DNA from: Escherichia coli
GTDB lineage: Bacteria > Pseudomonadota > Gammaproteobacteria > Enterobacterales > Enterobacteriaceae
NCBI RefSeq assembly: GCF_013315695.1
Contig: NZ_CP054354.1
Length of the DNA: 64,000 nucleotides
Direction: 5' to 3' (one strand)
Positions 1 through 35,865 of this stretch are shown here, in pieces. Both the position numbers and the translations under genes were made by a program. The notes under the pieces were generated by a model. That model made no database searches. It saw nothing but the letters and a program-made list of their open reading frames with translations, and was not told the origin of the DNA. Position 1 is the first letter of the stretch, and every line of letters starts with the position of its first letter.

Positions 1-36
1 CCCCGCCGGAGACGGGGCGGCAGCAAGGGAGATACC

Positions 37-474
37 GTGATGAAAACTGAACTGACCCTGAATGCCCTGCAGTCCATGAACGCACAGGAATATGAAGATA
101 TCCGTGCTGCGGGAAGCGATATGCGCCGTAATCTCACTCACGAGGTGATGCGTGAAGTGGACGCACCGGCTAACTGGGTGATGAACGGAGAGTATGGCAG
201 TGAGTTCGGGGGCTTTTTCCCCGTCCAGGTTCGTTTCACGCCAGCCCACGAACGTTTCCACCTGGCATTATGTTCGCCGGGAGACGTCTCTCAGCTCTGG
301 ATGCTGGTTCTGGTGAATGGTGGTGGACAGCCTTTCGCCGTCGTTCAGGTGCAACATATCTTCACGCCTGTCGCGATCAGTCACACGCTGGCGCTTGCCG
401 CGACACTGGATGCGCAGGGATACAGTGTTAACGACATCATCCATATCCTGATGGCAGAAGGAGGTCAGGCATGA
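37..474 (+). CDS. psiB: PsiB-like plasmid SOS-inhibition protein
   Basis: 145 aa; N-terminus MKTELTLN... matches PsiB as I recall it; GGAGG RBS; stop overlaps start of following 239-aa ORF (ATGA), the classic psiB-psiA arrangement; leading-region context. Confidence 0.6.
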
Positions 475-1190
475 GCGCACGTTCACGGGCACTGATCCCC
501 CTCAGCGCAGAACAACAGGCCGCCATGCAGGCGGTGGCTGTCACAGAACAACGTCGTCGTCAGGGACGCACACTTTCAGCATGGCCTTATGCCACCGCTT
601 TCTTTCGCTGCCTGAATGGCAGTCGCCGGATTTCGCTGACCGATCTCCGCTTTTTTGCCCCTGCGCTGACGAAGGAGGAATTTCATGGCAACCGTCTCCT
701 GTGGCTGGCTGCCGTGGATAAACTGATTGAAAGTTTTGGGGAAGTCTGTGTTCTTCCCCTGCCATCCGATGCGGGGCACCGTCTGTTCCCGTCCGTGCCT
801 TTTCGTGAAGGTGAGCGTCGTCGTCAGAAAACCACGCTGACAGAGCAGAAATACAGCCGCCAGCGGGAACGTGAGGCAGAACGACGGGAACTGGAATACC
901 AGACATGTTTTGCTCAGGCGCAGATTGACCTTGCGTTTCATACTCCCGCCACGGTCGGAAGCTGGTTGTCCCGCTGGTCTGGTGTTGTTGAGGAGCATGA
1001 TCTGGAAACGATTTTCTGGGGGTGGTGCGGGCGTTTTCCATCACTGTCATCATTTGACCGGTTTTTCTGGCAGGAGGAACCACTCTGGCGGCTGATTTTT
1101 GAAGCCGGTGAGGCCGGTCGTGGTGCACCGGTACAGGTACGTGCACTTGAGCAGTGGATGATCCCGAACAAGCTGGAGAACGTAATATGA
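471..1190 (+). CDS. psiA: PsiA-like protein
   Basis: 239 aa (same length as F PsiA); translationally coupled to psiB; GGAGG 6 nt upstream of ATG 471. Confidence 0.55.
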
Positions 1191-1783
1191 TGAAATCAGA
1201 CGAAAAATACCAGGTTCCCGCGTGGATGCGACCTCTGTTGCCGTTGCTCTGCAACACCGGGGGGAACGATCCGGAAGAACTGCTGAATGATACAGAAACC
1301 ACTGCCAGTGCGAATGTTGTCCGTTATGTACTGATAGTTGCTGTGCGGTCGCAGGTTGATCTGCTGCAGCTTCTGTACAGGAAAGGGCTGTTGCGCACAG
1401 AGATACCAGGTGGCTTTTCACCGGAAGAAGCGCAGGCACTCCTGGATAATCTGGTGCGCAGCCATATCAGCAAGGCGCTGTCGGGCGAGCGAATGGCAGC
1501 CCGTGACAGAAATGCCGATCTGGCCTGGATTGGACAGCAACTGGTCGATGCCGCCTGGTTTGTCCGTGCCACACTGGAAGCGCATGGGATGAGCGTCGGA
1601 AATGAGAGTCCCCCTGCTCCGCCGGAGACAATGCCGGACATACAGACACGGGAACTGGTGATGTTGATCAAGCGACTGGCATCATCGCTGAAAGCGGTGA
1701 AACCGGACAGTTGTGTGGTGCGTGAAGCGCAGGACTGGCTGCGCGACAGAAAACTTGTGGATATCACAGATATTCTCCGGTGA
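1187..1783 (+). CDS. hypothetical leading-region protein
   Basis: ORF 1154..1783; likely start ATG 1187 (MMKSDEKYQ) after GGAGA; no recognisable motif. Confidence 0.45.
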   Translation: MMKSDEKYQVPAWMRPLLPLLCNTGGNDPEELLNDTETTASANVVRYVLIVAVRSQVDLLQLLYRKGLLRTEIPGGFSPEEAQALLDNLVRSHISKALSGERMAARDRNADLAWIGQQLVDAAWFVRATLEAHGMSVGNESPPAPPETMPDIQTRELVMLIKRLASSLKAVKPDSCVVREAQDWLRDRKLVDITDILR

Positions 1784-2244
1784 ACCAGGCATGTATATTT
1801 TACGCAGGGACATGCCGGTCATGATCGTTTCGTTCCAGGGGTGGTCTGGAGATCATGCGGTGTGCTCCCTGCTCTCGCCGGAATAAGGACGTCGCCGCCG
1901 GCTCCGCTTTTACCCGGCCATGCGGGGCATGGCCTTGTGGGTTTTCAGTTATGTGGCCGCCGTGTCGTGTGCGGGCTGTGCCGTGCCTCCATCGTAGCCG
2001 GGCTTCTGCGGGCGGGATGCAAGGTAAGATGAACCGCTGCGGTCACCCGGTCCCTCCTTCCCGTCTGCCGTGATTTTCCGGTCGTTCACCCGCTCAGATT
2101 TCGCGGTCTCACCCTCCAACTCCCGCCAGCCGTGTGCGTCAGGCTGCGGCTTCCCTTGCGCCCTTGCATCCCTGCAGGCCCGGCAAAGATGGAGGCACGG
2201 CACCGCCCGGTGTCGCAGAACATGTGACTATGGAGGATTCGGGA

Positions 2245-2745
2245 ATGTCTGTTGTTGCACCTGCTGTATACGTTGGAACCTGGCACAAATACAACTGTGG
2301 AAGCATCGCTGGCCGCTGGTTTGACCTGACAACGTTTGATGATGAACGCGACTTTTTCGCCGCCTGCCGTGCCCTTCACCAGGATGAAACCGACCCGGAA
2401 CTGATGTTTCAGGATTATGAGGGATTCCCGGGGAATATGGCCTCTGAATGCCATATCAACTGGGCCTGGGTTGAAGGCTTCCGCCAGGCGCGGGATGAAG
2501 GCTGCGAAGAGGCTTATCGTCTCTGGGTGGATGATACCGGTGAGACGGATTTTGACAGCTTCCGCGATGCCTGGTGGGGCGAGGCTGACAGTGAGGAGGC
2601 TTTTGCGGTTGAGTTCGTCAGTGATACCGGCCTGCTGGCTGACGTGCCGGAGACGGTGGCGCTCTATTTTGACTATGAGGCGTATGCGCGGGATTTATTC
2701 CTGGACTCCTTCACCTTTATTGACGGTCATGTGTTCCGTCGGTGA
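2245..2745 (+). CDS. ardA: ArdA-family antirestriction protein
   Basis: MSVVAPAVYVGTWHKYNCGSIAGRWF... and C-terminal YFDYEAYARDLFLDSFTFI match ArdA hallmark motifs; acidic; start chosen at ATG 2245 after GGAGG (ORF track start 2134 is probably an N-terminal over-extension). Confidence 0.8.
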   Translation: MSVVAPAVYVGTWHKYNCGSIAGRWFDLTTFDDERDFFAACRALHQDETDPELMFQDYEGFPGNMASECHINWAWVEGFRQARDEGCEEAYRLWVDDTGETDFDSFRDAWWGEADSEEAFAVEFVSDTGLLADVPETVALYFDYEAYARDLFLDSFTFIDGHVFRR

Positions 2746-3112
2746 TTTACTCCCCGCTCCGGCGGGGGGATGGCCTGCCAGGCCCCCGGAAAACCCTGGC
2801 AGGCTTACGCCTGCCTGAAATACAGGAGGGCCGCGCCTGCGGCGCTACCCTTCCTGCCTGTCATAGTGTGAGGCATTTTTCTGTTTTGTCGTTTCTGTTG
2901 TTCTGACTCCCGGGGGCGGGGACACCCTTCGGCTCCCGGCTGCCTGGCGGCATCCGGTCGTCAGGCCCGACTCCGACAGGCAGCTGCTGGCGCACCCGCC
3001 AGTCTCCGCCGAACCCGCTGGCGCGGTTTCGGGCTGCCGCTACGGTCCGATGTCTGAAAAACCAGGCTTGCAGCGACCGTTCCGGTCGCGCCGCCTCTGT
3101 CGCGCCGTGACC

Positions 3113-3433
3113 TGCGCTCCCTGCACACCTGACGGTGTGTAAGGAAACTGCGCCTGATGGCGCAGTTGTCTGCCCTTCCGCCGCCCCCCCTGCGGCCTGT
3201 TTCCCCGCTGTGGACTTTCCGGGGGCTGAAGCGGCCACAACACGTTTCAGCCGTCCAGGGGAGAGATGTACCAGCCACAAAACTTTTTGCCGCAAGCGTC
3301 AAAAACTTTTGCGTCTGCCCCCGGACAACTGCCCCGTGCCGTGGCAGTCGCTGCCCCATCGGAAAGGTCCACTGCGGGGAGAAACCCCGAAGAAGTGGAC
3401 GGCAGAAGGGGCTTTCGCCCCTCCGGGGGAGCA
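3113..3433. repeat. copy A of ~320-bp GC-rich noncoding repeat (candidate ssDNA promoter or leader element)
   Basis: High nucleotide identity by eye to 6481..6795; similarity does not respect reading frame (ORFs drawn in the two copies diverge after a shared MYQPQNFLPQASKTFASAPGQLPR); lies directly upstream of a + strand gene. Confidence 0.7.
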
Positions 3434-3477
3434 ACCGGTCGGCCCGGCGACCTGATTCAGCAGAAGGAGACGTTTTC

Positions 3478-3912
3478 ATGACAGTCAGCAGCACGATTTC
3501 CGTTTTTTGCCGCGACGGGGTGTTCCGTACCGTTTACTGCCACCTGCACGGTGAGCCGACCTGGAACGGTCGCATCCTGCATACCCACTATGCCACCGGT
3601 CAGCAGGCCGAAGCCCTGGTTGAACACGGTGATATCCGTTGCCTCGGTCCCCGTTGCGACAAACCCGCCGGGCATACGCTTCAGAACCCGGTGGACGGTG
3701 TGACGGCTTATTACGGACGTGACAGTGGTTTCCGGATGGACAGTGAGGCGCGTGAGTACCGTTCTTTCAGGGAGGCCATCGCCACGGAAAGCACTGAAGA
3801 GGTGCGCTTCCATTATGTGTTCATCGACGGCTACTGGAAGGTGATGTACCGCACGCCGGAAGGCTGGAAGATGAAAGCGCTCGCGCTGGCACTGCGTCGC
3901 TGTCCGGAATGA
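3478..3912 (+). CDS. hypothetical protein, 144 aa, Cys/His-containing
   Basis: Internal ATG 3478 of ORF 3157..3912 (MTVSSTISVF...); upstream part of the track ORF lies in repeat A; followed by a hairpin. Confidence 0.5.
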   Translation: MTVSSTISVFCRDGVFRTVYCHLHGEPTWNGRILHTHYATGQQAEALVEHGDIRCLGPRCDKPAGHTLQNPVDGVTAYYGRDSGFRMDSEAREYRSFREAIATESTEEVRFHYVFIDGYWKVMYRTPEGWKMKALALALRRCPE

Positions 3913-3917
3913 AAAAA

Positions 3918-3945
3918 AGCAGGGCGATAAACCCTGCCTTTCTCC
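3918..3945 (+). terminator. putative hairpin terminator
   Basis: agcaggg-cgataaa-ccctgc stem-loop followed by a T-rich tract, just after the stop at 3910-3912. Confidence 0.35.
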
Positions 3946-4004
3946 GCTGGCGCTTCCCCGTACGGAAGTCCGGCATCTCATTCACTAACTATGGAGATTA
4001 TGCC

Positions 4005-4271
4005 ATGAGACCATCAATTATCTTCGCAACCGCCGAGTATGTAAAGCGTCTGCGAGAAGAGTGCCTGCGGGAGAACAAACCCCTGCACCGCCATACCCGC
4101 TTCAGACGCCAGGAACTGGCACCGGATGAGATTAACCCGGACGTCCTGGCGATGGGCGGTCATATCGCCAGACGCTGCAGTGAGCAGAAGCGGGTACGTA
4201 TCCCCGCCATGAAAGTCAGCGAATGGGGCCACCTGCTCCGCGCGCTTGAAATTGAACGGGTCTGTCACTGA
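4005..4271 (+). CDS. hypothetical protein, 88 aa
   Basis: ATG 4005 with GGAGA 7 nt upstream (MRPSIIFATAEY...); ORF 3909..4271. Confidence 0.4.
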   Translation: MRPSIIFATAEYVKRLREECLRENKPLHRHTRFRRQELAPDEINPDVLAMGGHIARRCSEQKRVRIPAMKVSEWGHLLRALEIERVCH

Positions 4272-4447
4272 TTAACCCCTGCCGTCTGCCTGTGCAGGTG
4301 GCAGGATGTGTTCAGGTACTTTACCAGGAGGAACCGTGAGCAAGATGAAAAACATCACGACGTCTGTGTTGCATGGTGTCTCCACAAAAAACAGAAAAGG
4401 GAAACAGATTCTCTTTCATTCAGGGCCCGGGAGGGCTGGAGATAACA

Positions 4448-4837
4448 ATGAAGTCTTGTTTTGATACTGACAAAGCTTTTCATATGTCTTTTGATGAAGT
4501 CACTTTCAACGCTGACAGAATTCGCTCAAAACTGGAACTATTATCCGAAGAACTAATGCCCCGTTGTGGTCTTGTTTATGAGCTATATCAGCGACGTTTG
4601 AGTGCTGCTATTGATAATTTTGTGGCCACATTGCCGACAGAACAACATCTACTGGTCCTGGAACTGGCCCGTGAGGAGTTTGATTACCTTTCCGCAGAAG
4701 AGATTGCTGAAGAAATACGCCGTGACTCAGAACGCGGCTATTGTTGTCATGGCTTTGAACGCAATTGCTGTCCTCTCGGTTGTGGGGATTTGGGCGATGA
4801 TTGCTGCGATGCTGCTGATTTGATGGAGGAACCGTGA
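4448..4837 (+). CDS. acidic protein with Cys-rich C-terminus, 129 aa
   Basis: ATG 4448 after GGAG (MKSCFDTDKAF...); many D/E; C-terminal CCHGFERNCCPLGCGDLGDDCCDAAD; stop TGA overlaps GTG start of rpn (GTGA). Confidence 0.5.
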   Translation: MKSCFDTDKAFHMSFDEVTFNADRIRSKLELLSEELMPRCGLVYELYQRRLSAAIDNFVATLPTEQHLLVLELAREEFDYLSAEEIAEEIRRDSERGYCCHGFERNCCPLGCGDLGDDCCDAADLMEEP

Positions 4838-5748
4838 GTAAGAAGAAAAACACCACAACGCCCACGCCGCATGATGCCGCGTTCCGGTCGTTCCTGGCGA
4901 ATCCCGACGTCGCCAGAGATTTTCTGGAACTGCATCTTCCTGCGGAGTACCGGCAGTTGTGCGACCTGTCCACGCTGAAGCTGGAACCCGCCACCTTTGT
5001 AGAGCCGGACCTGCATCAGTACGCCAGCGATATCCTCTGGAGCGTGAAAACCACCGGGGGTGAAGACGGCTATGTTTATACGCTCATCGAGCACCAGAGC
5101 ACAGAAAATCTGTACATGCCTTTTCGCATGTTACGCTACAGTGTGGCGGCGATGCAGAGACATCTGGAGCAGCACAAAACGTTGCCACTGGTGATTCCGG
5201 TGCTGTTCTATCACGGTGAGCGCAGCCCGTACCCGTACAGCATGAACTGGCTGGACTGTTTTGAGAATCCGGCACTTGCGGCTAAAATATACACAAAACC
5301 GTTTCCGCTGGTTGATATCACTGTCGTTGATGACAATGAAATCATGAATCATCGCCGGATGGCCGCACTGACGCTGCTGATGAAGCATATCCGCCATCGT
5401 GACATGATGGAGCTGCTGGACAAACTCCCGCAGGTCATGGTGGAAATTTCAGACGAGCAGGTGCGTGTTCTGATTCATTACATCGTTAACGCAGGGGACT
5501 CTGTATCACCGGAATTTATGCGGGCGCTGGCTGAGCGTCTGCCGCAGCATGAGGATAAACTGATGACTATCGCAGAACGTCTTGAGCAAAAAGGTCGCCA
5601 GGAAGGCAGGATGGAAGGACGCATGGAAGGAGCGCTTGAAAAAGCCCTGGCTATTGCGTGCCAGCTTCAGAAAATGGGGATGACGCCGGAGCAGATTAAG
5701 CAGGCTACCGGACTTTCCGATGACGAACTGAAGAAAATCACTCACTGA
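4834..5748 (+). CDS. rpn: Rpn-family recombination-promoting nuclease (YhgA-like, PD-(D/E)xK)
   Basis: 304 aa; N-terminal and core match the Rpn/YhgA-like family; C-terminal tail MTIAERLEQKGRQEGRMEGRMEG...; GTG start after GGAGG. Confidence 0.75.
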   Translation: MSKKKNTTTPTPHDAAFRSFLANPDVARDFLELHLPAEYRQLCDLSTLKLEPATFVEPDLHQYASDILWSVKTTGGEDGYVYTLIEHQSTENLYMPFRMLRYSVAAMQRHLEQHKTLPLVIPVLFYHGERSPYPYSMNWLDCFENPALAAKIYTKPFPLVDITVVDDNEIMNHRRMAALTLLMKHIRHRDMMELLDKLPQVMVEISDEQVRVLIHYIVNAGDSVSPEFMRALAERLPQHEDKLMTIAERLEQKGRQEGRMEGRMEGALEKALAIACQLQKMGMTPEQIKQATGLSDDELKKITH

Positions 5749-5761
5749 TGAGAACCGCAAA

Positions 5762-5786
5762 GCCCGGCAAAATCCCGGGCTTTTTT
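5762..5786 (+). terminator. rho-independent terminator after rpn
   Basis: gcccgg-caaaatc-ccgggc stem-loop followed by TTTTTT. Confidence 0.65.
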
Positions 5787-5810
5787 GCCTGCAGGAGCAG
5801 AGCAAACAGC

Positions 5811-5981
5811 ATGACGATTGCAGAACGTCTTATACAGAAAGGTTTTGAAAAAGGTGCTCTTGAAGTGGCGCGGGAAATAGCCTGCCGGCTGCGGGATATG
5901 GGCTGGACGCCGGAACGGATTCAGGAGGCGACCGGACTTTCCGGTGAAGAACTGAAAAAGCTGTTTCCTGATGAGCAGTAG
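5811..5981 (+). CDS. standalone Rpn C-terminal-tail-like small protein (RpnS-like)
   Basis: 56 aa from ATG 5811: MTIAERLIQKGFEKGALEVAREIACRLRDMGWTPERIQEATGLSGEELKKL closely parallels the last ~60 aa of the upstream Rpn. Confidence 0.55.
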   Translation: MTIAERLIQKGFEKGALEVAREIACRLRDMGWTPERIQEATGLSGEELKKLFPDEQ

Positions 5982-6011
5982 CCTGGCATTCTGCCAGGCT
6001 GTGAATCACGC

Positions 6012-6263
6012 TCACACATCCTCTGCCGTTTCCCCCAGTTCATTTTCCAGTCGCCTGATGATATCTGCCTTACGCATCCCCTGCATGTGAGGCAGCAGGT
6101 CACGGACTGAAAGTGCCTGGGTGGTCCTCCAGACGGTGACATCCACCTGCTCCGCATTTTCCCAGGCGTGCCATGTTCTCTGTGTCACGCCAAATTCTCT
6201 GGCCGCTTTTTCGCGTGACCAGAGCATGCTTTTTCGCCAGATTCGCAGTTCCCAGCCGGTCAT
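6012..6263 (-). CDS. XRE-like helix-turn-helix regulator
   Basis: 83 aa; ...REKAAREFGVTQRTWHAWEN... resembles an HTH DNA-binding motif; AT-rich promoter region with palindromes upstream. Confidence 0.55.
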   Translation of the reverse strand: MTGWELRIWRKSMLWSREKAAREFGVTQRTWHAWENAEQVDVTVWRTTQALSVRDLLPHMQGMRKADIIRRLENELGETAEDV

Positions 6264-6277
6264 AAAATACCTTTTAA

Positions 6278-6298
6278 AAAGTGAAAAAACTTCACTTT
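6278..6298. promoter_or_regulatory. palindromic operator-like site AAAGTGAA-N5-TTCACTTT
   Basis: Perfect 8-bp inverted arms with 5-nt spacer, just upstream of the minus-strand HTH gene start. Confidence 0.4.
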
Positions 6299-6344
6299 AT
6301 TTTATCACCATAATCACCAAATCAGCGCGAAAAATAAATGTGAA

Positions 6345-6365
6345 AAAGTGAAGAAATTTCACTTT
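6345..6365. promoter_or_regulatory. second palindromic operator-like site AAAGTGAA-N5-TTCACTTT
   Basis: Same arms as 6278..6298, 67 bp away. Confidence 0.4.
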
Positions 6366-6480
6366 TTTTAGTTGTAGATGTCGTGCTGTTTTCTCTGTTT
6401 TCACCTGTGCGGGAGTGGGTGTCAGTGACCACCACATGCCATTGTTGTGCCGTCGTTTTTCTTCAGTCGCGCCGGATGCA

Positions 6481-6795
6481 GCGCTCCCTGCACACCTTAC
6501 GGTGTGTAAGGCCACTGCGCCTGATGGCGCAGCTGTCTCTGCCTGTCTGCCGCCGCACTGCGGCCTGTTCTCCGCAGACGGACTTTCCGGGGAACATACA
6601 CGACCACATCCCGTTTCAGTTATCCAGGGGAGAGATGTACCAGCCACAAAACTTTTTGCCGCAGGCGTCAAAAACTTTTGCGTCTGCCCCCGGACAACTG
6701 CCCCGTGACGTGGTGAGCATCCCCCGTCGGAAAGGTCCACTGCGGGGAAATCCCCGAAGACCCGGACGGCAGAAGGAGCTTCGCTCCTCCGGGAA
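6481..6795. repeat. copy B of ~320-bp GC-rich noncoding repeat
   Basis: See copy A; lies directly upstream of the gene starting at 6841. Confidence 0.7.
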
Positions 6796-6840
6796 ATGAC
6801 CTGGCTGACCCGGCAGTCGTGACGATGAGGAGACAATGTG

Positions 6841-7689
6841 ATGAATCAGACTTTACCCACTGCTGACCTGAATACTGCCGGCACGACAGATGTTATTCCG
6901 TCTGTAGCTATCGACCGCATCATCGCGCAGCGTAACGAAGGTATTGCACTGTTCATGCAGGCGATGGAATGCCTGGCGACAGCGCGCAAGATTCTGCTCG
7001 ATGCGTCAGGTGATATTTTTCTTTACGGGTTTGAAGACTGCGTGACTGATTCCGTTCGTCGCATGGATAAGACGGAAGAAGCGAAAAGGAATATCACCCG
7101 TCTTGCCGACCGGAAAATCTGGGACCGCCTGATGACAGATACGGGCATGTACACCTTCATGAGTTCATGCCAGCGTGATGAGTGGAACAGCCAGCTGATG
7201 AGCGACACCTGTCCTGAAATCACCCTGGACAATGTACTGGCAACATTCCGCCATCTTAATGCCAGCAAGATGCAGACGTTTGAACAGGGGCTGATTGATG
7301 TCTACCGGAAATTGTCATGGGATTACAGAACCAATAATCCCTGCCGTCTGGGTAAGAAAATCATTATTGAAAACCTACTGTACCGCTGGAGTAACGGGCG
7401 TGTGACGCTGGACTGCAGCGGACGGGAGGCACTGGATGACCTGGTACGTCCGTTTTATCTGCTGGAGGGGCGCAACGTTCCTGACTTCAGGAACAGCATC
7501 GGGGCGCAGTATGGTGAATTTCTCGGGAACGGTGACAATGTCGGTAAGCTGTTAGAAGGGGAATATTTTACGGTGCGTGGCTACCAGAAAGGGACCGTAC
7601 ACATTGTCTTTAAGCGTTCTGACCTTGTTGAAAAACTGAATGATATTATTGCACGGCATTATCCTGGTGCATTGCCGCCACGAGTCTGA
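6841..7689 (+). CDS. hypothetical leading-region protein, ~282 aa
   Basis: ORF 6838..7689; ATG 6841 with GAGGAG 8 nt upstream; no recognisable motif. Confidence 0.55.
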   Translation: MNQTLPTADLNTAGTTDVIPSVAIDRIIAQRNEGIALFMQAMECLATARKILLDASGDIFLYGFEDCVTDSVRRMDKTEEAKRNITRLADRKIWDRLMTDTGMYTFMSSCQRDEWNSQLMSDTCPEITLDNVLATFRHLNASKMQTFEQGLIDVYRKLSWDYRTNNPCRLGKKIIIENLLYRWSNGRVTLDCSGREALDDLVRPFYLLEGRNVPDFRNSIGAQYGEFLGNGDNVGKLLEGEYFTVRGYQKGTVHIVFKRSDLVEKLNDIIARHYPGALPPRV

Positions 7690-7755
7690 TTAAACAGAAA
7701 AGCCCAGGTATTTATGCCGGGGCTTTTTTTTCTGTAATCATCATAATCTCAGAAC

Positions 7756-7774
7756 ACAATGTGACATTGTCACA
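7756..7774. promoter_or_regulatory. overlapping perfect palindromes ACAATGT-G-ACATTGT / TGTGACA-T-TGTCACA
   Basis: Read directly from sequence between two convergent genes. Confidence 0.3.
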
Positions 7775-8110
7775 TCAATTGTTGTTCATATCGATGCCAT
7801 CTTTCCTGCCTGAATCTGTCTTTTTAGGTGCTGTTTTAGAGGAAGAACGGCGGGATGGTTTTTTCGATTCTGCTTCCCGAATAATGTCACGAAGTGCTTT
7901 CTCTCCTACTTCATATCCTGCATTTTTGAGCGTGTCACGAACATCTGTCAGTGTATAACCCTTTGTCCTTACCAGGATAATGATGTCATCACGAATGGCA
8001 TCAAGAAAATCACGCAATGTTTTCCGTTGAGCGGTGAGGTCTGGCAATTCCGATAAAGCAGCTTTTGCCAGCTGGATGTCATCATCTGAGTAAAATTTTT
8101 TAGACGCCAT
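7775..8110 (-). CDS. hypothetical basic protein next to oriT, possibly DNA-binding
   Basis: ORF 7775..8116; ATG at 8110 with GGAGA upstream; Lys/Arg-rich C-terminus; divergent from nikA. Confidence 0.45.
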   Translation of the reverse strand: MASKKFYSDDDIQLAKAALSELPDLTAQRKTLRDFLDAIRDDIIILVRTKGYTLTDVRDTLKNAGYEVGEKALRDIIREAESKKPSRRSSSKTAPKKTDSGRKDGIDMNNN

Positions 8111-8116
8111 TGGCAC

Positions 8117-8342
8117 TTTCTCTCCGTTTAATGTTGAAGCCTGATTTTATCATCAAAAACTGCCTCCTGGCAGGGCTGCGCCCTGCCTCTGCCGTCTGCA
8201 TAAGACTATGATGCACAAAAATAACAGGCTATAATGGACTGAAAAACGGGACAGGATGTGTAATCGTATAACCGCGCACGCACGGCTATACGATTACCAC
8301 CTGGTCAGGGCTTAGCCCCGACACCCCGGTAAGGAGCAGACC
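8117..8342. other. candidate origin of transfer (oriT)
   Basis: Intergenic region upstream of nikA; perfect 11-bp inverted repeat GTAATCGTATA (8260..8270) / TATACGATTAC (8287..8297); on the minus strand the repeat is followed 2 nt later by ATCCTG (8252..8258), resembling the MobP nick motif ATCCTG|C; second inverted repeat CAGGGC-TGC-GCCCTG nearby. Confidence 0.55.
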
Positions 8343-8675
8343 ATGAGTGAGAAGAAAACCCGAAGTGGCAGTGAGAAACGGCAAAAGAATGTCCTCATTG
8401 CTGTTCGTTTTTCACCAGAAGAGGCTGAGATTGTTAAAGAAAAGGCAGAAAAAAACGGACTGACAGTTTCAACTCTGATAAGAAAAACTGTGCTGGGAAA
8501 ACAGATAAATGCCCGCATTGACGAAGATTTTTTGAAAGAGCTGATGCGTCTTGGTCGCCTGCAGAAGCATCTGTTTGTGGAAGGAAAACGCACGGGAGAT
8601 AAAGAGTATGCAGAGGTTCTCGTTGCTATTACAGAGCTTGCTAATACTCTGCGAAGAAATTTAATGGGACGCTGA
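8343..8675 (+). CDS. nikA: NikA-like relaxosome accessory protein (ribbon-helix-helix)
   Basis: 110 aa, same size as R64 NikA; AGGAG RBS; directly upstream of the relaxase. Confidence 0.65.
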   Translation: MSEKKTRSGSEKRQKNVLIAVRFSPEEAEIVKEKAEKNGLTVSTLIRKTVLGKQINARIDEDFLKELMRLGRLQKHLFVEGKRTGDKEYAEVLVAITELANTLRRNLMGR

Positions 8676-8686
8676 GATAATCGCTG

Positions 8687-11407
8687 ATGAATGCCATCAT
8701 TCCGAAAAAAAGACGTGACGGAAAGTCTTCTTTTGAAGACCTGATTGCGTACACCTCAGTGCGGGATGATGTGCCGGAAGATGAACTCAGGCCTGACACG
8801 GAAATGAAAGCTGAGATTCCGCACCGGAACCGCTTCAGACGTCTTGTTGATTATGCAACACGTCTGCGTAATGAAAAATTTGTTTCCCTGATTGATGTGA
8901 TGAAAGACGGCAGTCAGTGGGTGAATTTCTATGGTGTGACCTGCTTTCATAACTGTTTGTCTCTTGAATCTGCGGCTGAAGAAATGCAGAAAGCAGCAGA
9001 GCTTGCTCATTTTTCCAAAGATGATACAGACCCTGTTTTTCACTATATTCTCTCCTGGCCTGCGCACGAAAGTCCGCGTTCTGAGCAGCTTTTTGACTGT
9101 GTGCGTCACACCCTGAAATCCCTTGAGCTGTCAAAACATCAGTATGTGGCAGCCGTTCATACAGACACGGATAACCTGCATGTACATGTTGCAGTGAATC
9201 GTGTCCACCCTGAAACCGGCTATATCAATTGCCTTCCGTGGAGCCAGGAAAAACTCAGTCGTGCATGCCGTGAACTTGAACTTAAGCACGGATTCGCGCC
9301 GGATAATGGTTGCTTTGTACATGCACCGGGCAATCGTATTGTGCGCAAAACAGCGCTGGTACGTGAGCGCCGTAATGCCTGGCGACGCGGGAAAAAGCAG
9401 ACGTTCAGGGAATATATTGATCAGATGTCGATTGCCGGGCTGCGTGAAGAGCCAGCACAGGACTGGTTATCTTTGCATAAACGGCTGGCCAGTGATGGTC
9501 TGTATATCACGATGCAGGAAGGGGAACTGGTGGTGAAGGATGGCTGGGACAAAGCGCGGGAAGGTATTGCACTCAGTTCGTTCGGACCGTCATGGACAGC
9601 TGAAAAACTGGGGCGGAAACTGGGGGAATATCAGCCTGTACCGACAGATATTTTCAGTCAGGTGGGGACACCCGGTCGTTATGATCCGGAAGCCATAAAC
9701 GTTGATATCCGGCCGGAAAAAGTGGCAGAAACGGAGAGTCTGAAACAGTACGCCTGCCGTCATTTTGCCGAACGCTTACTGGCAATGGCGCGCAATGGTG
9801 AACTGAAAAGCTGCCTGGCTGTACACCGTACTCTGGCAGAGGCGGGATTATGGATGGGGATTCAACACGGGCATCTGGTACTGCATGATGGATTTGATAA
9901 ACAACAGACACCAGTACGTGCAGACAGTGTGTGGCCGTTAATGACGCTGGATTACATGCAGGATCTGGATGGTGGATGGCAGCCTGTACCGAAGGATATT
10001 TTTACTCAGGTCGTTCCCGGAGAACGATTCCGGGGACACAGTATTGGCTCTCAGCCTGTCAGTGATTACGAATGGTATCGCATGAGGATGGGCACAGGTC
10101 CGCAGGGGGCTATAAAGCGTGAACTGTTTTCTGATAAGGAAAGTCTGTGGGGATACGGCCTTATTCAGTGCAGGAGCCTGATTGAAGAGATGATAGCTGA
10201 CGGGGATTTCAGCTGGCAGGCATGTCATGAGATGTTTGCACGTAAAGGGCTTATGCTGCAGAAACAGCATCATGGTCTTGTGATTGTGGATGCGTTTAAT
10301 CATGAGCTGACACCGGTGAAGGCCAGCAGTATCCATCCTGATTTGACGTTATCCCGTGCCGAGCCTCAGGCCGGGCCATTTGAAATTGCGGCTGCAGATA
10401 TTTTCGAACGGGTGAAGCCTGAATGTCGTTACAATCCGGAACTTGCTGCCAGTGATGAAGTGGAACCCGGCTTCCGGCGCGATCCTGAGATTCGTCGTGA
10501 GCGCCGTGAAGCCCGTGCAGCTGCGCGGGAAGATTTGCGTGCGCGTTATCTTGCATGGAAGGAGCACTGGCGTAAACCCGACTTACGTTACGGAGAACGG
10601 TTACGGGAAATTCATGCTGCCTGCCGTCGGCGCAAGGCGTATATCCGTGTGCAGTTCCGGGATCCACAATTGCGTAAGCTGCATTACCATATTGCGGAAG
10701 TGCAGCGTATGCAGGCGCTGATCAGGCTGAAGGAGAGTGTGAAGGAAGAGCGGTTGTCACTGATTGCGGAGGGTAAGTGGTATCCTTTGTCCTACCGGCA
10801 GTGGGTGGAACAACAGGCGGCTCAGGGAGACAGGGCTGCAGTATCGCAGTTACGTGGCTGGGATTATCGTGATCGTCGCTCGCGTAATAAGGATAAAAGA
10901 CGCACAACTAATGTTGATCGTTGTGTCGTACTCTGCGAACCCGGAGGAACGCCACTTTTTAATAATGTTGCAAAACTTGAAGCTCGTCTTCAGAAAAATG
11001 GAAGTGTTCATTTCAGGGATACGCGGACAGGAAAAAATGTCTGTACGGATTACGGAGATCGGGTTGTTTTCTACCATCACACGGACCGAAATGAACTGGC
11101 AGAGAAGCTTGATTTAATTGCGCCAGTTCTGTTCAGCCGCAACGGAAAGCTTGGTTTTGAGCCGGAAGGTTCATACCAGCAGTTTAATGATGTGTTTGCA
11201 GAAATGGTGGCCTGGCACAATGCAGCGGGAATAACCGGAAACGGACACTTCACCATTACTCGTCCGGACGTGGATTTGCACCGTCAACGCAGTGAGCAGT
11301 ATTACCGGGAATATATCAGACAGCAGACCCGTTTATCGGAGAGCCATGATGATAATTATACGTTACGGCAGGAGAAAACATGGGAGCCACCATCACCTGG
11401 AATGTAA
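8687..11407 (+). CDS. nikB: NikB-like MobP-family relaxase
   Basis: 906 aa; HTDTDNLHVHVAVNRV fits the relaxase HxDxxxxHxHxxxN histidine motif; size close to R64 NikB. Confidence 0.75.
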   Translation: MNAIIPKKRRDGKSSFEDLIAYTSVRDDVPEDELRPDTEMKAEIPHRNRFRRLVDYATRLRNEKFVSLIDVMKDGSQWVNFYGVTCFHNCLSLESAAEEMQKAAELAHFSKDDTDPVFHYILSWPAHESPRSEQLFDCVRHTLKSLELSKHQYVAAVHTDTDNLHVHVAVNRVHPETGYINCLPWSQEKLSRACRELELKHGFAPDNGCFVHAPGNRIVRKTALVRERRNAWRRGKKQTFREYIDQMSIAGLREEPAQDWLSLHKRLASDGLYITMQEGELVVKDGWDKAREGIALSSFGPSWTAEKLGRKLGEYQPVPTDIFSQVGTPGRYDPEAINVDIRPEKVAETESLKQYACRHFAERLLAMARNGELKSCLAVHRTLAEAGLWMGIQHGHLVLHDGFDKQQTPVRADSVWPLMTLDYMQDLDGGWQPVPKDIFTQVVPGERFRGHSIGSQPVSDYEWYRMRMGTGPQGAIKRELFSDKESLWGYGLIQCRSLIEEMIADGDFSWQACHEMFARKGLMLQKQHHGLVIVDAFNHELTPVKASSIHPDLTLSRAEPQAGPFEIAAADIFERVKPECRYNPELAASDEVEPGFRRDPEIRRERREARAAAREDLRARYLAWKEHWRKPDLRYGERLREIHAACRRRKAYIRVQFRDPQLRKLHYHIAEVQRMQALIRLKESVKEERLSLIAEGKWYPLSYRQWVEQQAAQGDRAAVSQLRGWDYRDRRSRNKDKRRTTNVDRCVVLCEPGGTPLFNNVAKLEARLQKNGSVHFRDTRTGKNVCTDYGDRVVFYHHTDRNELAEKLDLIAPVLFSRNGKLGFEPEGSYQQFNDVFAEMVAWHNAAGITGNGHFTITRPDVDLHRQRSEQYYREYIRQQTRLSESHDDNYTLRQEKTWEPPSPGM

Positions 11408-11515
11408 GCCCGGATAAGTGATGGTGCAAAGATTCAGCCCAAAAACGGCAGGAATCTTCGTCAATAAGGGCGGGAGTAGTCACTGAATTGAGTTTATACC
11501 CGGTTAACTCTGAAT

Positions 11516-11539
11516 TAAGGGCCGTGTCTGCGGCCCTTA
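11516..11539. terminator. hairpin between convergent nikB and trbC
   Basis: Perfect 9-bp stem TAAGGGCCG / CGGCCCTTA with 6-nt loop. Confidence 0.5.
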
Positions 11540-11627
11540 TCCAGTGCGCCGTAAAACCCCGGACTTAGTGAACAGGGTTTTACAGTCTGATTGACAGATA
11601 TGGTCACCAGAAAATATTTGTATTCCT

Positions 11628-13928
11628 TCAGTATTTTTCGTCAGTTGTTGGTTGTGCTCCACATGATTTCTGGGGATGATCATTATTTATTGTCTTCGAT
11701 TTATTATTTTCAGCGACCGGTAACAGTATCTCCAGGGGGAGCAGGGTATTCAGAATCGCCTTCACTGAAGGTATATCTTCAGGACCGGAGTGTTCCTCTT
11801 CCGGACGATTCAGTGTGATATAACATACCCGGCGTTCTTCCCTGGTTGTGTTATTGATAGTGTGCACAGCCTTTTTCCACAGTTCGTTTGCCCGGGATTC
11901 GATATCTGTATCATATTGCGGAAGCAGATCCAGTGATGTCTGCGCTGTTGCCAACCGGCGCTGGAATGTATCAATGATACGGTAAGGCTCTGTACGGTTT
12001 TTACGACGTTTACGGGATGGTTTTGCTGTCAGTACACCGATGATGCTGCTGACATGCTCCGGTGTGGGGAGCCTGCGCTGCACTGTCCTGGGGACGAGAC
12101 GGCGGAGACGCTCCAGCCGGGGGGCTTCAACGGAAATATAGCGGTTGATGACCACCGGATCACTGTCGCAACTTTTCTCGCTGTCCGGAATATACACAGA
12201 GGCTGACGGCACCACATCCCCCTGGAAAACGGTAAAGAACTCACCGGCATTCAGTCTGATCAAATCCTGCACGTCGATTTTGCTTTCCATCTGGATGGTG
12301 ATCTGGTTACCGTCCACCCAGGACTCACCCATCACACCATCGTGGCGCTGCAGGCTGCCCATTCTGGCCCGTGCCTCTTCACCGGCGGCATTTTTCACCG
12401 TTCTTGCCGTTTTGTCGTCACTGACAATGCGTCCGGCGAATTTGGTGCCGGCGTTCTGCATCAGTGTGGCGGTGTTGGTGGCGGAGGTCTGCCCTTCAAT
12501 TCGCTCCTGATCCTGCGCCATCATTATCAGGGAAAACTCCAGTGAACGTACCTGGGTGGCCTCCACAGCAATGCGGTCTGTGTAGTAGGCACCGACTTCG
12601 TCAAGGATACAGATATAGGGGAAGCTGCCTTTGTATTTTTTGACTTCCAGGGTCTGTGCATCTGTGCCTTCCAGGCGGTAGCCCAGGTCACGGGCGAGGA
12701 GCATGCTCTGCTGGGTGACGAACATACGACCGAGTGCCGACGTGGTATGGGCCGATGTGTCCAGTGCAGGGATCATCACAATCAGAATGCGGTCGCTGTG
12801 AATACTGTCGCGAATATCGATATCGCCGGCATCTGCCGCAAAGACGTCCCCGAAGGTTTCGGCAAAGGTTGTGAACGTTTCCGAGAACTGACCGGAGAGA
12901 TAAGCATGCTGTTTACGGGGCTCCTCAGTCCAGGCTGACGGCGTTCTCACCAGTGACATATCGAATCCCGGGACATCCTGCAGGTAGTTTCGCAGTGGTG
13001 CGATAGCTTCTTCCGGCCACTGGTCATCAAGGCCACGGCAATAGAGTTTTGCCATCCCTTCCAGCGTCATATGTTCCCGTAACATCTGCAGGGACATGGT
13101 TTTACCTTCCCGGACGCACCAGAATTTTGTGCCAAAGACCAGGGCTTTGTTCATGGCTATCGCCCGTGACTGCCATTCACCGCCCTGAACGTTCTGGGGC
13201 AGCATGGACTGCATGGTTTCGGCGGTGAAGGCTTCGGTGCTGAATGCGAACGGGTTCCAGGTGTTTGACTGTGGGCGGGATTTATCGCCACTCTGAATGA
13301 CTTCACTGCGGGATTTTCCGCCGTTCATGAAGTTGATGACTTCGATATCATCCTCCCTGCCAAAACGTCGGGAGAGATACCAGATTGTCCTCGTGGTATC
13401 GTTCTGTGCCTTGCCGTCAACAAAGGTAAAGCCTCTTCCCCAGCAGAGCGGGTTGAGCAGCCAGGCAAAGGTGGTTTCTGTTTTACCGCCACCGGTGGTG
13501 GCAAAAAACATGACATGCCGGGTGAGGTCATCCATGCTCAGCCAGAGTTCGCGACCGATATCGTTGATACGGCGGTAACCGACATAAAAAATCCCCCGGG
13601 CGGGGAATGTTTCATCCGCTTCATACTGAAACAGGGTGGGCCAGAAGCTGAAGAGGCTTCTCCTGACCTTTCTGTCCTGGGAGGGGTCATCAAGGCTGAG
13701 TGTCATGGGCATACGCAGGGGGCATCGCCAGCGTTGCAGCATGAATATCACGGAGGTGACCAGGGTGAACAGCAGGCAGACAGGAAGGGCCAGTGGCCAT
13801 ATCAGCGCCGTAATGATACTGCCGGCCAGACACAGACCAGTGATGTTCAGGTTATGCAGTGCATTCCACAACGGGTTTCCCCAGGCCGTGCGGTGTATGA
13901 GGTCAGGATTAACGTGGTGCTGGCTCAT
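11628..13928 (-). CDS. trbC: TrbC-like type IV coupling protein (DotL/IcmO-like)
   Basis: 766 aa; N-terminal TM segments; Walker A FATTGGGKTE; size and position match R64 TrbC. Confidence 0.75.
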   Translation of the reverse strand: MSQHHVNPDLIHRTAWGNPLWNALHNLNITGLCLAGSIITALIWPLALPVCLLFTLVTSVIFMLQRWRCPLRMPMTLSLDDPSQDRKVRRSLFSFWPTLFQYEADETFPARGIFYVGYRRINDIGRELWLSMDDLTRHVMFFATTGGGKTETTFAWLLNPLCWGRGFTFVDGKAQNDTTRTIWYLSRRFGREDDIEVINFMNGGKSRSEVIQSGDKSRPQSNTWNPFAFSTEAFTAETMQSMLPQNVQGGEWQSRAIAMNKALVFGTKFWCVREGKTMSLQMLREHMTLEGMAKLYCRGLDDQWPEEAIAPLRNYLQDVPGFDMSLVRTPSAWTEEPRKQHAYLSGQFSETFTTFAETFGDVFAADAGDIDIRDSIHSDRILIVMIPALDTSAHTTSALGRMFVTQQSMLLARDLGYRLEGTDAQTLEVKKYKGSFPYICILDEVGAYYTDRIAVEATQVRSLEFSLIMMAQDQERIEGQTSATNTATLMQNAGTKFAGRIVSDDKTARTVKNAAGEEARARMGSLQRHDGVMGESWVDGNQITIQMESKIDVQDLIRLNAGEFFTVFQGDVVPSASVYIPDSEKSCDSDPVVINRYISVEAPRLERLRRLVPRTVQRRLPTPEHVSSIIGVLTAKPSRKRRKNRTEPYRIIDTFQRRLATAQTSLDLLPQYDTDIESRANELWKKAVHTINNTTREERRVCYITLNRPEEEHSGPEDIPSVKAILNTLLPLEILLPVAENNKSKTINNDHPQKSCGAQPTTDEKY

Positions 13929-34531: not shown

Positions 34532-35865
34532 GGATAACTTTCCTGTTGTATGCCGTAGCGTTGCTGCATTTCATTCTGTTTACGGAGGACCGCCGCCCGG
34601 ATCCTGTCAGAGGCCTGGTGCTCTGCCTCCGCCTGGGTGAGCGGACGTCCGGAGGAGGGGGACTCAGAAGGGGCAGTGCCGGAGGACGGCGTACTGATAT
34701 CGTTGCTCATGACCGGCTCAACAAACAGAATGGAGACGACCTCGCCCCGTGATACTGTCACCTGACGGTAAGGTTCGCTCTCTGCCTGGCGGGTCAGCAG
34801 CTGGCTGCCCCGTTCGGCCATGCCACCTGCAATGACGCCGGCCAGCGCCTCTCCATCAGGCATTCCCACCCTGCCGGTAATACTGCCGTAGTTTCCCTGA
34901 AGGATCTGTGTGTTGGCGTCTTTGTAAAGACTTCCGACATTGCCCACCCCGCCAAGTACGGACGGCAGAACGATGTGCTTAAACCAGCGGTGGTTCACGT
35001 CGCTGGCCACGGTTGACATTCCTGTTCGTTCATTCAGGGCATATGCATTCACCTTCAGAAACATGCCCCTCCACATCATCCGGTCAAAGTGGATATCCAT
35101 TCCCTGACCTGCGAGTCTGGCGTCCTGGCTGTAGAGGACGGCCCCGGCCCATGGGCCGGCAGGTACGGAGGCCACCACACGGGAGACCGCATTGTCAGAG
35201 TCCACTTCGGTATCAATGTAGGCCGGTACGCGGGTCAGTGCCGGTATCAGCTGGATCCCCGGACGTGCTGCCGGGGTTGCCAGACTCGTCTCCTGCAGAC
35301 GGGGATGTTGTGATGTAACGGTACCGGGCGGTGACGCATGTGGGGCTGTCCCGGGAGTGCCGGTGGTGCTCCACATGGCTGCTGCCACTACCGGTGGCCG
35401 GGCATCCTGATGCTGTGTATTGATACGGGCAAGCAGTTTCTGTAATGCCTCACGCCGTTTTTCCCGGGCAGTCTGATCTTCCTGAGGGGGGGATGCGTTT
35501 TGCCCGGAAGTGCCTGACTGATCATCGGGGGGATTATCCCTTTTCTGATCGTTTCCGGTATCGGTATCCAGTCCCCGGGGCAGACTGGCGATAAACGTCT
35601 CGTTATTACGTAACGCTTCTGCAGCACCACGTTCATTGTCAGCCCGCAGTAAATCCCGGTAGTGCTGTGTCTCCATCACGTTCCGTCCGCCGCCGGACGT
35701 TGTGCTGTTGATATTGACTGACGAGAGCGATGCAGCGTTTTCGGGGGACAGCCAGGTGAGCAGCAGGTATCCGCCCCCGATGATAATCACGCCCCCCATA
35801 ACCAGCAGGGCTGACAGCTTTTTGCCGGATTTTGCGGCTGTGTCCTGTTCTTGTTCTGCGCTCAT
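34528..35865 (-). CDS. traO: TraO-like protein (DotG/IcmE-like)
   Basis: 445 aa; N-terminal TM, Pro/Thr-rich linker; position. Confidence 0.6.
   Translation of the reverse strand: MSAEQEQDTAAKSGKKLSALLVMGGVIIIGGGYLLLTWLSPENAASLSSVNINSTTSGGGRNVMETQHYRDLLRADNERGAAEALRNNETFIASLPRGLDTDTGNDQKRDNPPDDQSGTSGQNASPPQEDQTAREKRREALQKLLARINTQHQDARPPVVAAAMWSTTGTPGTAPHASPPGTVTSQHPRLQETSLATPAARPGIQLIPALTRVPAYIDTEVDSDNAVSRVVASVPAGPWAGAVLYSQDARLAGQGMDIHFDRMMWRGMFLKVNAYALNERTGMSTVASDVNHRWFKHIVLPSVLGGVGNVGSLYKDANTQILQGNYGSITGRVGMPDGEALAGVIAGGMAERGSQLLTRQAESEPYRQVTVSRGEVVSILFVEPVMSNDISTPSSGTAPSESPSSGRPLTQAEAEHQASDRIRAAVLRKQNEMQQRYGIQQESYP

Follow-up and report, generated by a model that had tools for sequence, protein, structure and literature searches.

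The locus described here raises the question of whether a small helix-turn-helix (HTH) gene, oriented against nearly all of its neighbours in the leading region of a conjugative plasmid, regulates itself through two palindromes that lie upstream of it, and whether its control extends to other genes. The analysed DNA, a stretch of 64,000 nucleotides referred to as the window, belongs to the IncI-complex plasmid R16; positions 5900-6900 are 100% identical to the R16 record NZ_MK758104.1. R16 carries a MOB-P relaxase and is typed as MPF-I and IncI-gamma/K1. Approximately 2,000 IncI-complex plasmids show 92-98% identity to window positions 5900-6900.

The gene order, which runs from psiB (37-474), psiA (471-1190) and ardA (approximately 2134-2745) through an Rpn-family gene (YhgA-like, PD-(D/E)XK; 4834-5748) to nikA (8343-8675; the homologue is annotated mobA in R16) and nikB (8687-11407), identifies the window as the oriT-proximal end of the leading region. 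The HTH gene maps to 6012-6263 on the minus strand, according to the list of open reading frames, the R16 annotation and Pfam. Divergent from it, on the plus strand, is a leading gene encoding a DUF4942 protein (6838-7689; Pfam DUF4942, E=5e-51), followed by an oriT-proximal, YggA-like ORF on the minus strand (7775-8116). Upstream of the DUF4942 gene, an ssi/Frpo-like element of the class 1 single-stranded DNA (ssDNA) promoter type (6463-6713, plus strand) shares direct repeats with 3096-3344. This element is outside the operator module and is mentioned as context only. A search for Rfam families in positions 1-12000 of the window returned nothing relevant.

A preliminary description of this DNA had singled out the HTH gene and the oriT-proximal ORF at 7775-8116 as the only minus-strand genes of the leading region. 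The R16 annotation agrees, in that the CDSs between record position 35543 and the nikA homologue (annotated mobA) are otherwise all on the plus strand. The HTH gene is monocistronic and convergent with the preceding genes, both in the window and in its relatives; in the window, it has no co-oriented neighbour. In some database records, the gene is named ygeA, following R64 nomenclature. The ygeA of the F plasmid is a different gene, and no such HTH gene is present in the F leading region; the shared name is therefore coincidental. Our search of the literature on the ygeA-type HTH gene found no paper characterising it.

Homologues were collected from PLSDB, a protein collection and GTDB genomes, yielding about 35 distinct loci, all from Enterobacterales, the products of which are 30-57% identical to the window protein. 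The source plasmids include those of Enterobacter, Salmonella, Citrobacter, Buttiauxella, Erwinia, Yersinia, Rahnella, Serratia and Hafnia. The order NikB, NikA, oriT, YggA, leading genes, HTH and PsiA/PsiB is conserved in at least 17 loci with recognisable neighbours, and in these at least 17 loci the HTH gene and YggA face one way and all other genes face the opposite way. Leading genes are encoded so that the transferred strand serves as the template (PMC11541004). Since ardA, psiB and the rest of the leading genes are on the opposite strand from the HTH gene, the transferred strand is no template for the latter, and its transcription can occur only after synthesis of the complementary strand. 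A precedent is ygfA, an anti-oriented leading gene of the F plasmid that is produced only after single-strand to double-strand conversion (PMC9849209); ygfA of F is a transglycosylase. By the same reasoning, the HTH protein would be made only after this conversion, and would then limit its own synthesis.

Direct reading and a pattern search both revealed that AAAGTGAA-N5-TTCACTTT occurs exactly at 6278-6298 and at 6345-6365, upstream of the HTH gene. The two palindromes share the same 8-nt half-sites and differ in their 5-nt centres (AAAAC versus GAAAT). The proximal candidate operator, O1 (6278-6298), is AAAGTGAA-AAAAC-TTCACTTT, i.e., AAAGTGAAAAAACTTCACTTT, and is centred 25 bp upstream of the ATG. 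The distal candidate operator, O2 (6345-6365), is AAAGTGAA-GAAAT-TTCACTTT, i.e., AAAGTGAAGAAATTTCACTTT, and is located 67 bp from O1, measured centre to centre. In 100 dinucleotide-preserving shuffles of the 64 kb, the mean number of palindrome matches with up to two mismatches was 0.00. Thus the two palindromes with identical halves, which had been noticed in the preliminary description, match the sequence exactly and are absent from all 100 shuffles; a chance origin is excluded. The looser core AAGTG-N9-CACTT, with up to one mismatch, is found in just these two places in 64 kb. One further match with up to two mismatches to the full palindrome, AAAGGGAAACAGATTCTCTTT, occurs at 4396-4416. It was rejected as a third operator: its left flank (4327-4378) is a duplicated 5' fragment of rpn, and it is probably not a site because the GTG/CAC core, invariant in all relatives, is broken there.

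Candidate expression signals are present next to O1. A Shine-Dalgarno-like AAGG, read from the sequence, is found on the minus strand at 6270-6273, 6 nt upstream of the ATG, and AGG/GGA-type motifs occupy the same place in relatives. The hexamer TAAAAT (6304-6299, minus strand), recognised as -10-like from the sequence and from the consensus of relatives, adjoins O1. It is preceded by TGn (6307-6305, minus strand), and the whole, TGATAAAAT at 6307-6299, has the form of an extended -10. In nearly all loci, a TAAAAT-like hexamer is found at -6 to -1 before the proximal operator, with consensus counts of T18 A19 A19 A23 A22 T17 in 28 distinct loci. TAAAAT at 6304-6299 is therefore the putative -10 of the promoter from which the HTH gene is transcribed, and transcription would be expected to start within O1. 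A consensus scan for sigma-70-like promoters around the palindromes predicted none in either direction. The poor -35 is the reason why the scan misses the putative HTH gene promoter, and the promoter assignment consequently depends on the conserved -10 alone. If TAAAAT is the promoter, a bound dimer would cover approximately -6 to +15, the classic position of a repressor, and O2 would lie near -63, compared to near -52 for the distal site in relatives.

The same arrangement recurs in most homologous loci. Of about 35 loci, 26 carry AAGTG-N9-CACTT with its centre 22-26 bp ahead of the ATG, and in four more this distance is 34-56 bp; the palindrome is missing from the 220 bp upstream of the gene in six distant homologues. 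Two or three copies of the palindrome are present in 15 loci, with three in Buttiauxella loci. The centre-to-centre spacing is 55-57 bp in most cases, 64 bp in L039 and 67 bp in I-complex plasmids. Allowing up to one mismatch, the motif was matched 46 times in 7,920 bp of 220-bp promoter regions versus 11 times in 359,164 bp of flanking DNA, an approximately 190-fold enrichment in the promoters of the homologues. Moreover, about half of the 11 flank matches, including the exact ones, are operators that have been displaced by a toxin-antitoxin cassette or lie on a duplicated promoter.

The outer AAGTG/CACTT bases of the motif are fixed, and the inner bases vary by lineage, being GAA/TTC in the I-complex, GCA/TGC in most loci, and GAC/GTC or GGC in a third group. 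Fixed outer and lineage-specific inner bases are expected for a protein and an operator that co-evolve, and not for a universal host factor. CRP binds a consensus of the type TGTGA-N6-TCACA, and the I-complex variant AGTGA-N7-TCACT superficially resembles such a site. It is nevertheless very improbable that the palindromes are recognised by CRP or another host factor rather than by the adjacent HTH protein: the spacing exceeds that of the CRP consensus by one base, most relatives feature GTGCA/TGCAC, which is not CRP-like, and the variants track the lineage of the adjacent HTH gene, the site being confined to the vicinity of that gene.

Within the I-complex, comparison of seq­uences, seven in all, tells the half-sites apart from their surroundings. 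None of the 32 half-site positions varies, versus 23 of 125 other intergenic positions (Fisher one-sided p=0.003), and both central spacers and the flanks do vary. Judging from these alignments, the half-sites are under purifying selection within the I-complex. Taken with the conserved position of the palindrome relative to the -10 and the ATG, and with its conserved multiplicity, comparative genomics strongly supports autoregulation through the two candidate operators, as had been suggested at the outset.

The palindromes might also work as hairpins, instead of or besides duplex operators, either in the transferred ssDNA or as a protein-bound 5' UTR of the mRNA. Each palindrome could form an ssDNA hairpin of 8-10 bp (-5.8 to -8.1 kcal/mol, with z-scores of -1.9 to -4.4), and the anti-CRISPR-associated autorepressor Aca2 binds hairpins in its own 5' UTR (bioRxiv 10.64898/2026.07.27.740549). 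However, what is conserved is the sequence AAGTG/CACTT and not merely its pairing, and several natural sites contain unpaired substitutions, e.g., TGCCCTT in L007 and GGCACTT in L039. The stems are A/T-rich and weak compared to ssi hairpins, and an RNA started 6-8 nt after the conserved -10 would be devoid of the left arm. We hold this explanation to be quite improbable, and operators in duplex DNA are the preferred reading.

Two regularities of the operators were sought. A simple code linking the residues of helix 3 to the inner bases did not emerge, as L005 and L006 share His32 with the window protein and yet have GCA operators; a Leu28 variant of the I-complex has mixed GAA/GTA half-sites. 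Helical phasing is doubtful: one turn separates the spacings of 56 and 67 bp, and the 64 bp of L039 do not fit. Since 56, 64 and 67 bp are not strict multiples of the helical repeat, cooperative looping is uncertain. Between the two operators of I-complex plasmids, an imperfect 9-bp tandem repeat, TGGTGATTA/TGGTGATAA, is present at 6305-6322 (minus strand). This repeat may explain most of the 10-11 bp by which the operators of the I-complex are farther apart than those of other plasmids (67 versus 56 bp).

Some relatives carry rearrangements at the operators. A HigB/HigA-like toxin-antitoxin cassette of approximately 800 bp is inserted exactly between the distal and the proximal operators in L018 (5157-5988), and also in L021, L037 and L038. 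The loci bearing the cassette are from Yersinia, Rahnella and Enterobacter, and their distal operator is intact, approximately 845 bp (L018, L021 and L037) or 1,120 bp (L038) upstream of the HTH gene. In L022, positions 10478-11052 hold a 618-bp duplicate (90.6% identity) of the ssi element, the -10 and the operator, without the HTH gene. The duplicate points antisense into the neighbouring leading operon and carries the sole operator found away from the gene. In L014 (601-833), from the Escherichia fergusonii plasmid p150_40A, the HTH gene is frameshifted and both operators are intact.

The HTH gene encodes a protein of 83 residues that starts at an ATG, begins with MTGWELRIWRK and is recorded in R16 as WP_000148285.1, a 'helix-turn-helix transcriptional regulator'. 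In Pfam searches, the window protein matched HTH_31 (E=7e-5, 23.5 bits, under the gathering score of 27) and HTH_3 (E=0.007). At the level of the family, HTH_31 was found in 27 of 30 members (best E=1.2e-7) and HTH_3 in 25 of 30. Profile matches thus place the family in the XRE / Cro-C1 superfamily, the window sequence alone being below threshold. An AF2 model, built on 30 relatives (pLDDT 90.6), features five helices (3-12, 17-24, 28-35, 42-60 and 65-75) and no strands. The predicted fold is the five-helix bundle with a helix 2-turn-helix 3 arrangement that defines XRE proteins, in line with the family profiles, and the XRE-like character originally assigned to the protein is borne out by both.

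The family is narrow. An exhaustive HMMER search of 1.84 billion proteins retrieved 79 representatives at E<=1e-3. A few phages of Klebsiella, Yersinia and Erwinia encode distant homologues (34-47% identity), and the HTH protein matches PHROG 6962, a group of unknown function, with E=1.8e-13. Among structures, the top Foldseek matches are all XRE-type HTH proteins (Aca2, HipB, SinR and C.AhdI), with E-values >0.1, as is usual for so small a domain. Aca2 ranks first (TM 0.61, 28% identity), the E-value not being significant for a domain of this size. When the family profile was compared to all PDB sequences, the best match was again Aca2 (7EZY, E=7.6e-6, residues 1-57), with HipB antitoxins next. 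Aligned by hhalign with the N-terminus of Aca2, the family scored a probability of 96.5%, with 40% identity over 45 columns. The nearly invariant Arg29 of the family aligns opposite R30 of Aca2, a residue that was proposed to contact DNA by homology modelling on MqsA (Aca2 paper).

We searched for targets beyond the HTH gene in two complete plasmids. In the whole of R16 (107 kb, i.e., the window plus record positions 1-45000), a search that tolerated up to two mismatches in the 7+7 core gave no other site except the doubtful match at 4396. The whole of pLAP2_050004 (107 kb), which has a GCA-type operator, holds no site beyond the two in its promoter. Since neither plasmid has a further copy, the sole detectable plasmid target is the promoter of the HTH gene itself. 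A regulator that acts on nothing but its own gene would serve no evident purpose, and targets off the plasmid, or a role other than in transcription, may have escaped detection.

The preliminary description had also raised the possibility that the HTH protein controls the divergent unit leading into the downstream repeat (the ssi element) and the gene at 6841, and this part found no support. No promoter faces that unit, O2 is approximately 100 bp outside the ssi repeat, and the divergent genes vary among relatives (DUF4942, DUF5983/DUF932 and others). Early expression of leading genes in IncI1 plasmids is credited to ssDNA promoters in the literature (PMC12672017). Specifically, neither the consensus scan nor inspection by eye detected a divergent sigma-70 promoter at O2. 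In most plasmid-borne relatives, ssi-like repeats end 100-230 bp upstream of the ATG of the HTH gene; they are farther off in some, at approximately -420 in L006 and -930 where the toxin-antitoxin cassette is inserted.

Several observations would nonetheless suit a protein that also, or mainly, controls the divergent ssi and DUF4942 operon from O2, shutting off establishment genes in the manner of ArdK, Reg576 or Aca. The HTH gene is always back-to-back with one ssi-driven operon, the distal operator of L018-type loci stayed on the ssi side when the cassette was inserted, an operator copy is present on the duplicated ssi unit of L022, and the HTH resembles that of Aca2, a repressor of anti-defence operons. 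Against these weigh the lack of a promoter-like site facing the divergent gene in the consensus scan, the distance of O2 from the DUF4942 start (approximately 470 bp, in addition to the gap of about 100 bp to the ssi repeat), the absence of the operator from the other ssi copies of R16 and the poor conservation of divergent gene content. Furthermore, leading operons are driven by ssDNA promoters and are switched off on conversion to double-stranded DNA; the published shut-off consists of the loss of the ssDNA promoter structure at this step (PMC12672017, PMC9849209). Control of the divergent operon thus appears unlikely.

We therefore favour, with a probability of about 0.78, the view that the HTH protein is a dimeric XRE-type autorepressor and that the two palindromes in its promoter are its cognate operators. 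This view starts from sequence features, from their conservation and exclusivity and from the gene orientation, all of which are observed directly; from them we infer that the protein binds, that it does so as a dimer and represses, and where and when transcription of the HTH gene starts. A dimer of the 83-residue protein would bind the two 21-bp palindromes O1 and O2. Because O1 abuts the -10 and covers the expected start, its occupation would block RNA polymerase, resulting in negative autoregulation. O2, 67 bp upstream, would be auxiliary, and would most likely strengthen or sharpen repression by cooperative binding. The HTH gene would be switched on once the incoming plasmid is double-stranded, and its expression would then settle at a low, self-limited level.

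Such a mechanism, in which an XRE-type repressor regulates itself through palindromic operators, is ordinary. The novelty lies in the conserved, self-contained and anti-oriented regulatory module in the leading regions of MOB-P plasmids, together with the kinship of its HTH to that of Aca2.

Aca2 (Aca2_YdiL / DUF1870; PDB 7EZY, 7VJO-Q and 7B5J) is the best match in sequence and fold among solved structures. The two share the N-terminal HTH signature MT-x-ELxxxRK...AA-x-E-x-G-VS-x-R-(S/T)-W-x-x-WE and a location in an anti-defence-rich, early-entering part of a mobile element; both are small regulators, and the promoter region of either gene holds two inverted repeats (PMC6765145). However, Aca2 proteins are approximately 116-125 residues long, whereas the HTH protein has 83 residues, is all-helical in the model and is devoid of the C-terminal alpha/beta dimerisation domain (PMC8434428); the profile alignment to Aca2 stops at residue 57. 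The Aca2_YdiL model (PF08965, DUF1870) did not match the window protein at E<=1, and matched one of 30 relatives with E=0.045. In contrast to aca2, the HTH gene is monocistronic and anti-oriented, and is not located downstream of an acr or anti-defence gene in an operon. The operators also differ, being AAGTGAA-N5-TTCACTT in the HTH gene and TTCG-N6/8-CGAA for Aca2. For want of a profile match, a C-terminal domain, an acr operon and a common operator, the HTH protein was not assigned to the Aca2 family.

Like the XRE/Cro-C1 autorepressors HipB, MqsA, SinR and C proteins, the HTH protein features a five-helix HTH and an operator that overlaps its own promoter, and presumably binds the palindrome as a dimer. 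It differs from them in belonging to a distinct, narrow family and in a transcription unit that holds no toxin, restriction-modification or other cargo gene. A type II antitoxin of the HipB, HigA or MqsA kind was rejected, as no toxin gene is found as a co-oriented neighbour; the HigBA-like cassette of L018 was inserted independently and encodes an HTH antitoxin of its own. A restriction-modification controller (C) protein was likewise discarded, as no restriction endonuclease or methyltransferase is present in the unit; only the homologue of a pOXA-48-like plasmid is followed by a gene annotated 'restriction endonuclease', and the palindrome there is a different one. This homologue (L002, 3454-4249), which is 31% identical to the window protein, lies in a co-oriented operon, just upstream of the endonuclease gene, and a single palindrome, AATGTTCAAATATGAACATT, precedes this operon. 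The surroundings of the gene in L002 thus differ from those in the window, and may resemble those of a C protein.

ArdK of IncW/IncN plasmids is one example of a repressor that allows zygotic induction of establishment genes. Reg576 of p576 and the Aca proteins are others, and the HTH protein would likewise be a plasmid-encoded leading-region repressor, missing from the recipient when the plasmid enters and accumulating later (PMC8708921). Repressors of the Reg576/ArdK type have operators at several establishment operons; in the two complete plasmids, the sites of the HTH protein are found only at its own promoter, and the neighbouring operons use ssDNA promoters. A multi-operon establishment repressor was consequently rejected, the duplicated promoter in L022 being the sole exception.

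The YggA-like ORF at 7775-8116, annotated 'MobC' in RefSeq, is a homologue of Orf35 of pCTX-M3; at least 17 loci show it in synteny with the HTH gene. Orf35 represses the nikA-tra operon; its deletion in pCTX-M3 derepresses nikA, nikB and traH 23-80-fold (PMC6112013). YggA/Orf35 has the same orientation and the same conserved synteny by oriT as the HTH gene, but is an unrelated protein with no known DNA-binding motif, and has no operator motif in common with it. Orf35 corresponds to YggA, and was therefore rejected as the counterpart of the HTH gene.

A bolder and rather doubtful reading is that the YgeA family is the plasmid counterpart of Aca2, a 'late' regulator dependent on double-stranded DNA that marks the completion of the complementary strand, acts beyond its own promoter and closes the burst of anti-defence expression. 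The family is conserved with YggA in MOB-P leading regions. The protein might then act, for example, as an RNA-binding HTH on leading-region transcripts, on genes of the host or of competing elements that carry the motif, or as a roadblock beside an ssDNA promoter.

Leading regions of conjugative plasmids are now viewed as anti-defence islands with single-stranded promoters, and events that follow conversion to double-stranded DNA are much less clear. Approximately 2,000 IncI-complex resistance plasmids that have been sequenced carry the module described here, as do many other MOB-P plasmids of enterobacteria, and only one gene family besides the HTH family is likewise oriented the 'wrong' way in the leading region. 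A defined candidate operator (a 19-21 bp motif, two sites and a predicted promoter) offers a handle on a possible dedicated post-conversion regulator, and could be used in reporters of single-strand to double-strand conversion. If the HTH protein regulates only itself, the result is a routine improvement of annotation.

Further features are found in the DNA downstream of the HTH gene. Between the HTH gene and the convergent ORF at 5748-5981, an 8-bp G+C-rich stem-loop, GCCTGGCA-ttc-TGCCAGGC, maps to 5981-5999, with no T-run after it on either strand. The ORF at 5748-5981, which follows rpn and encodes 77 residues, repeats the C-terminal tail of Rpn (NCBIfam Rpn tail, E=2e-7); at the nucleotide level, 5627-5735 and 5851-5959 are 75% identical. 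A duplicate of the 5' end of rpn (79%) is likewise found, at 4327-4378.
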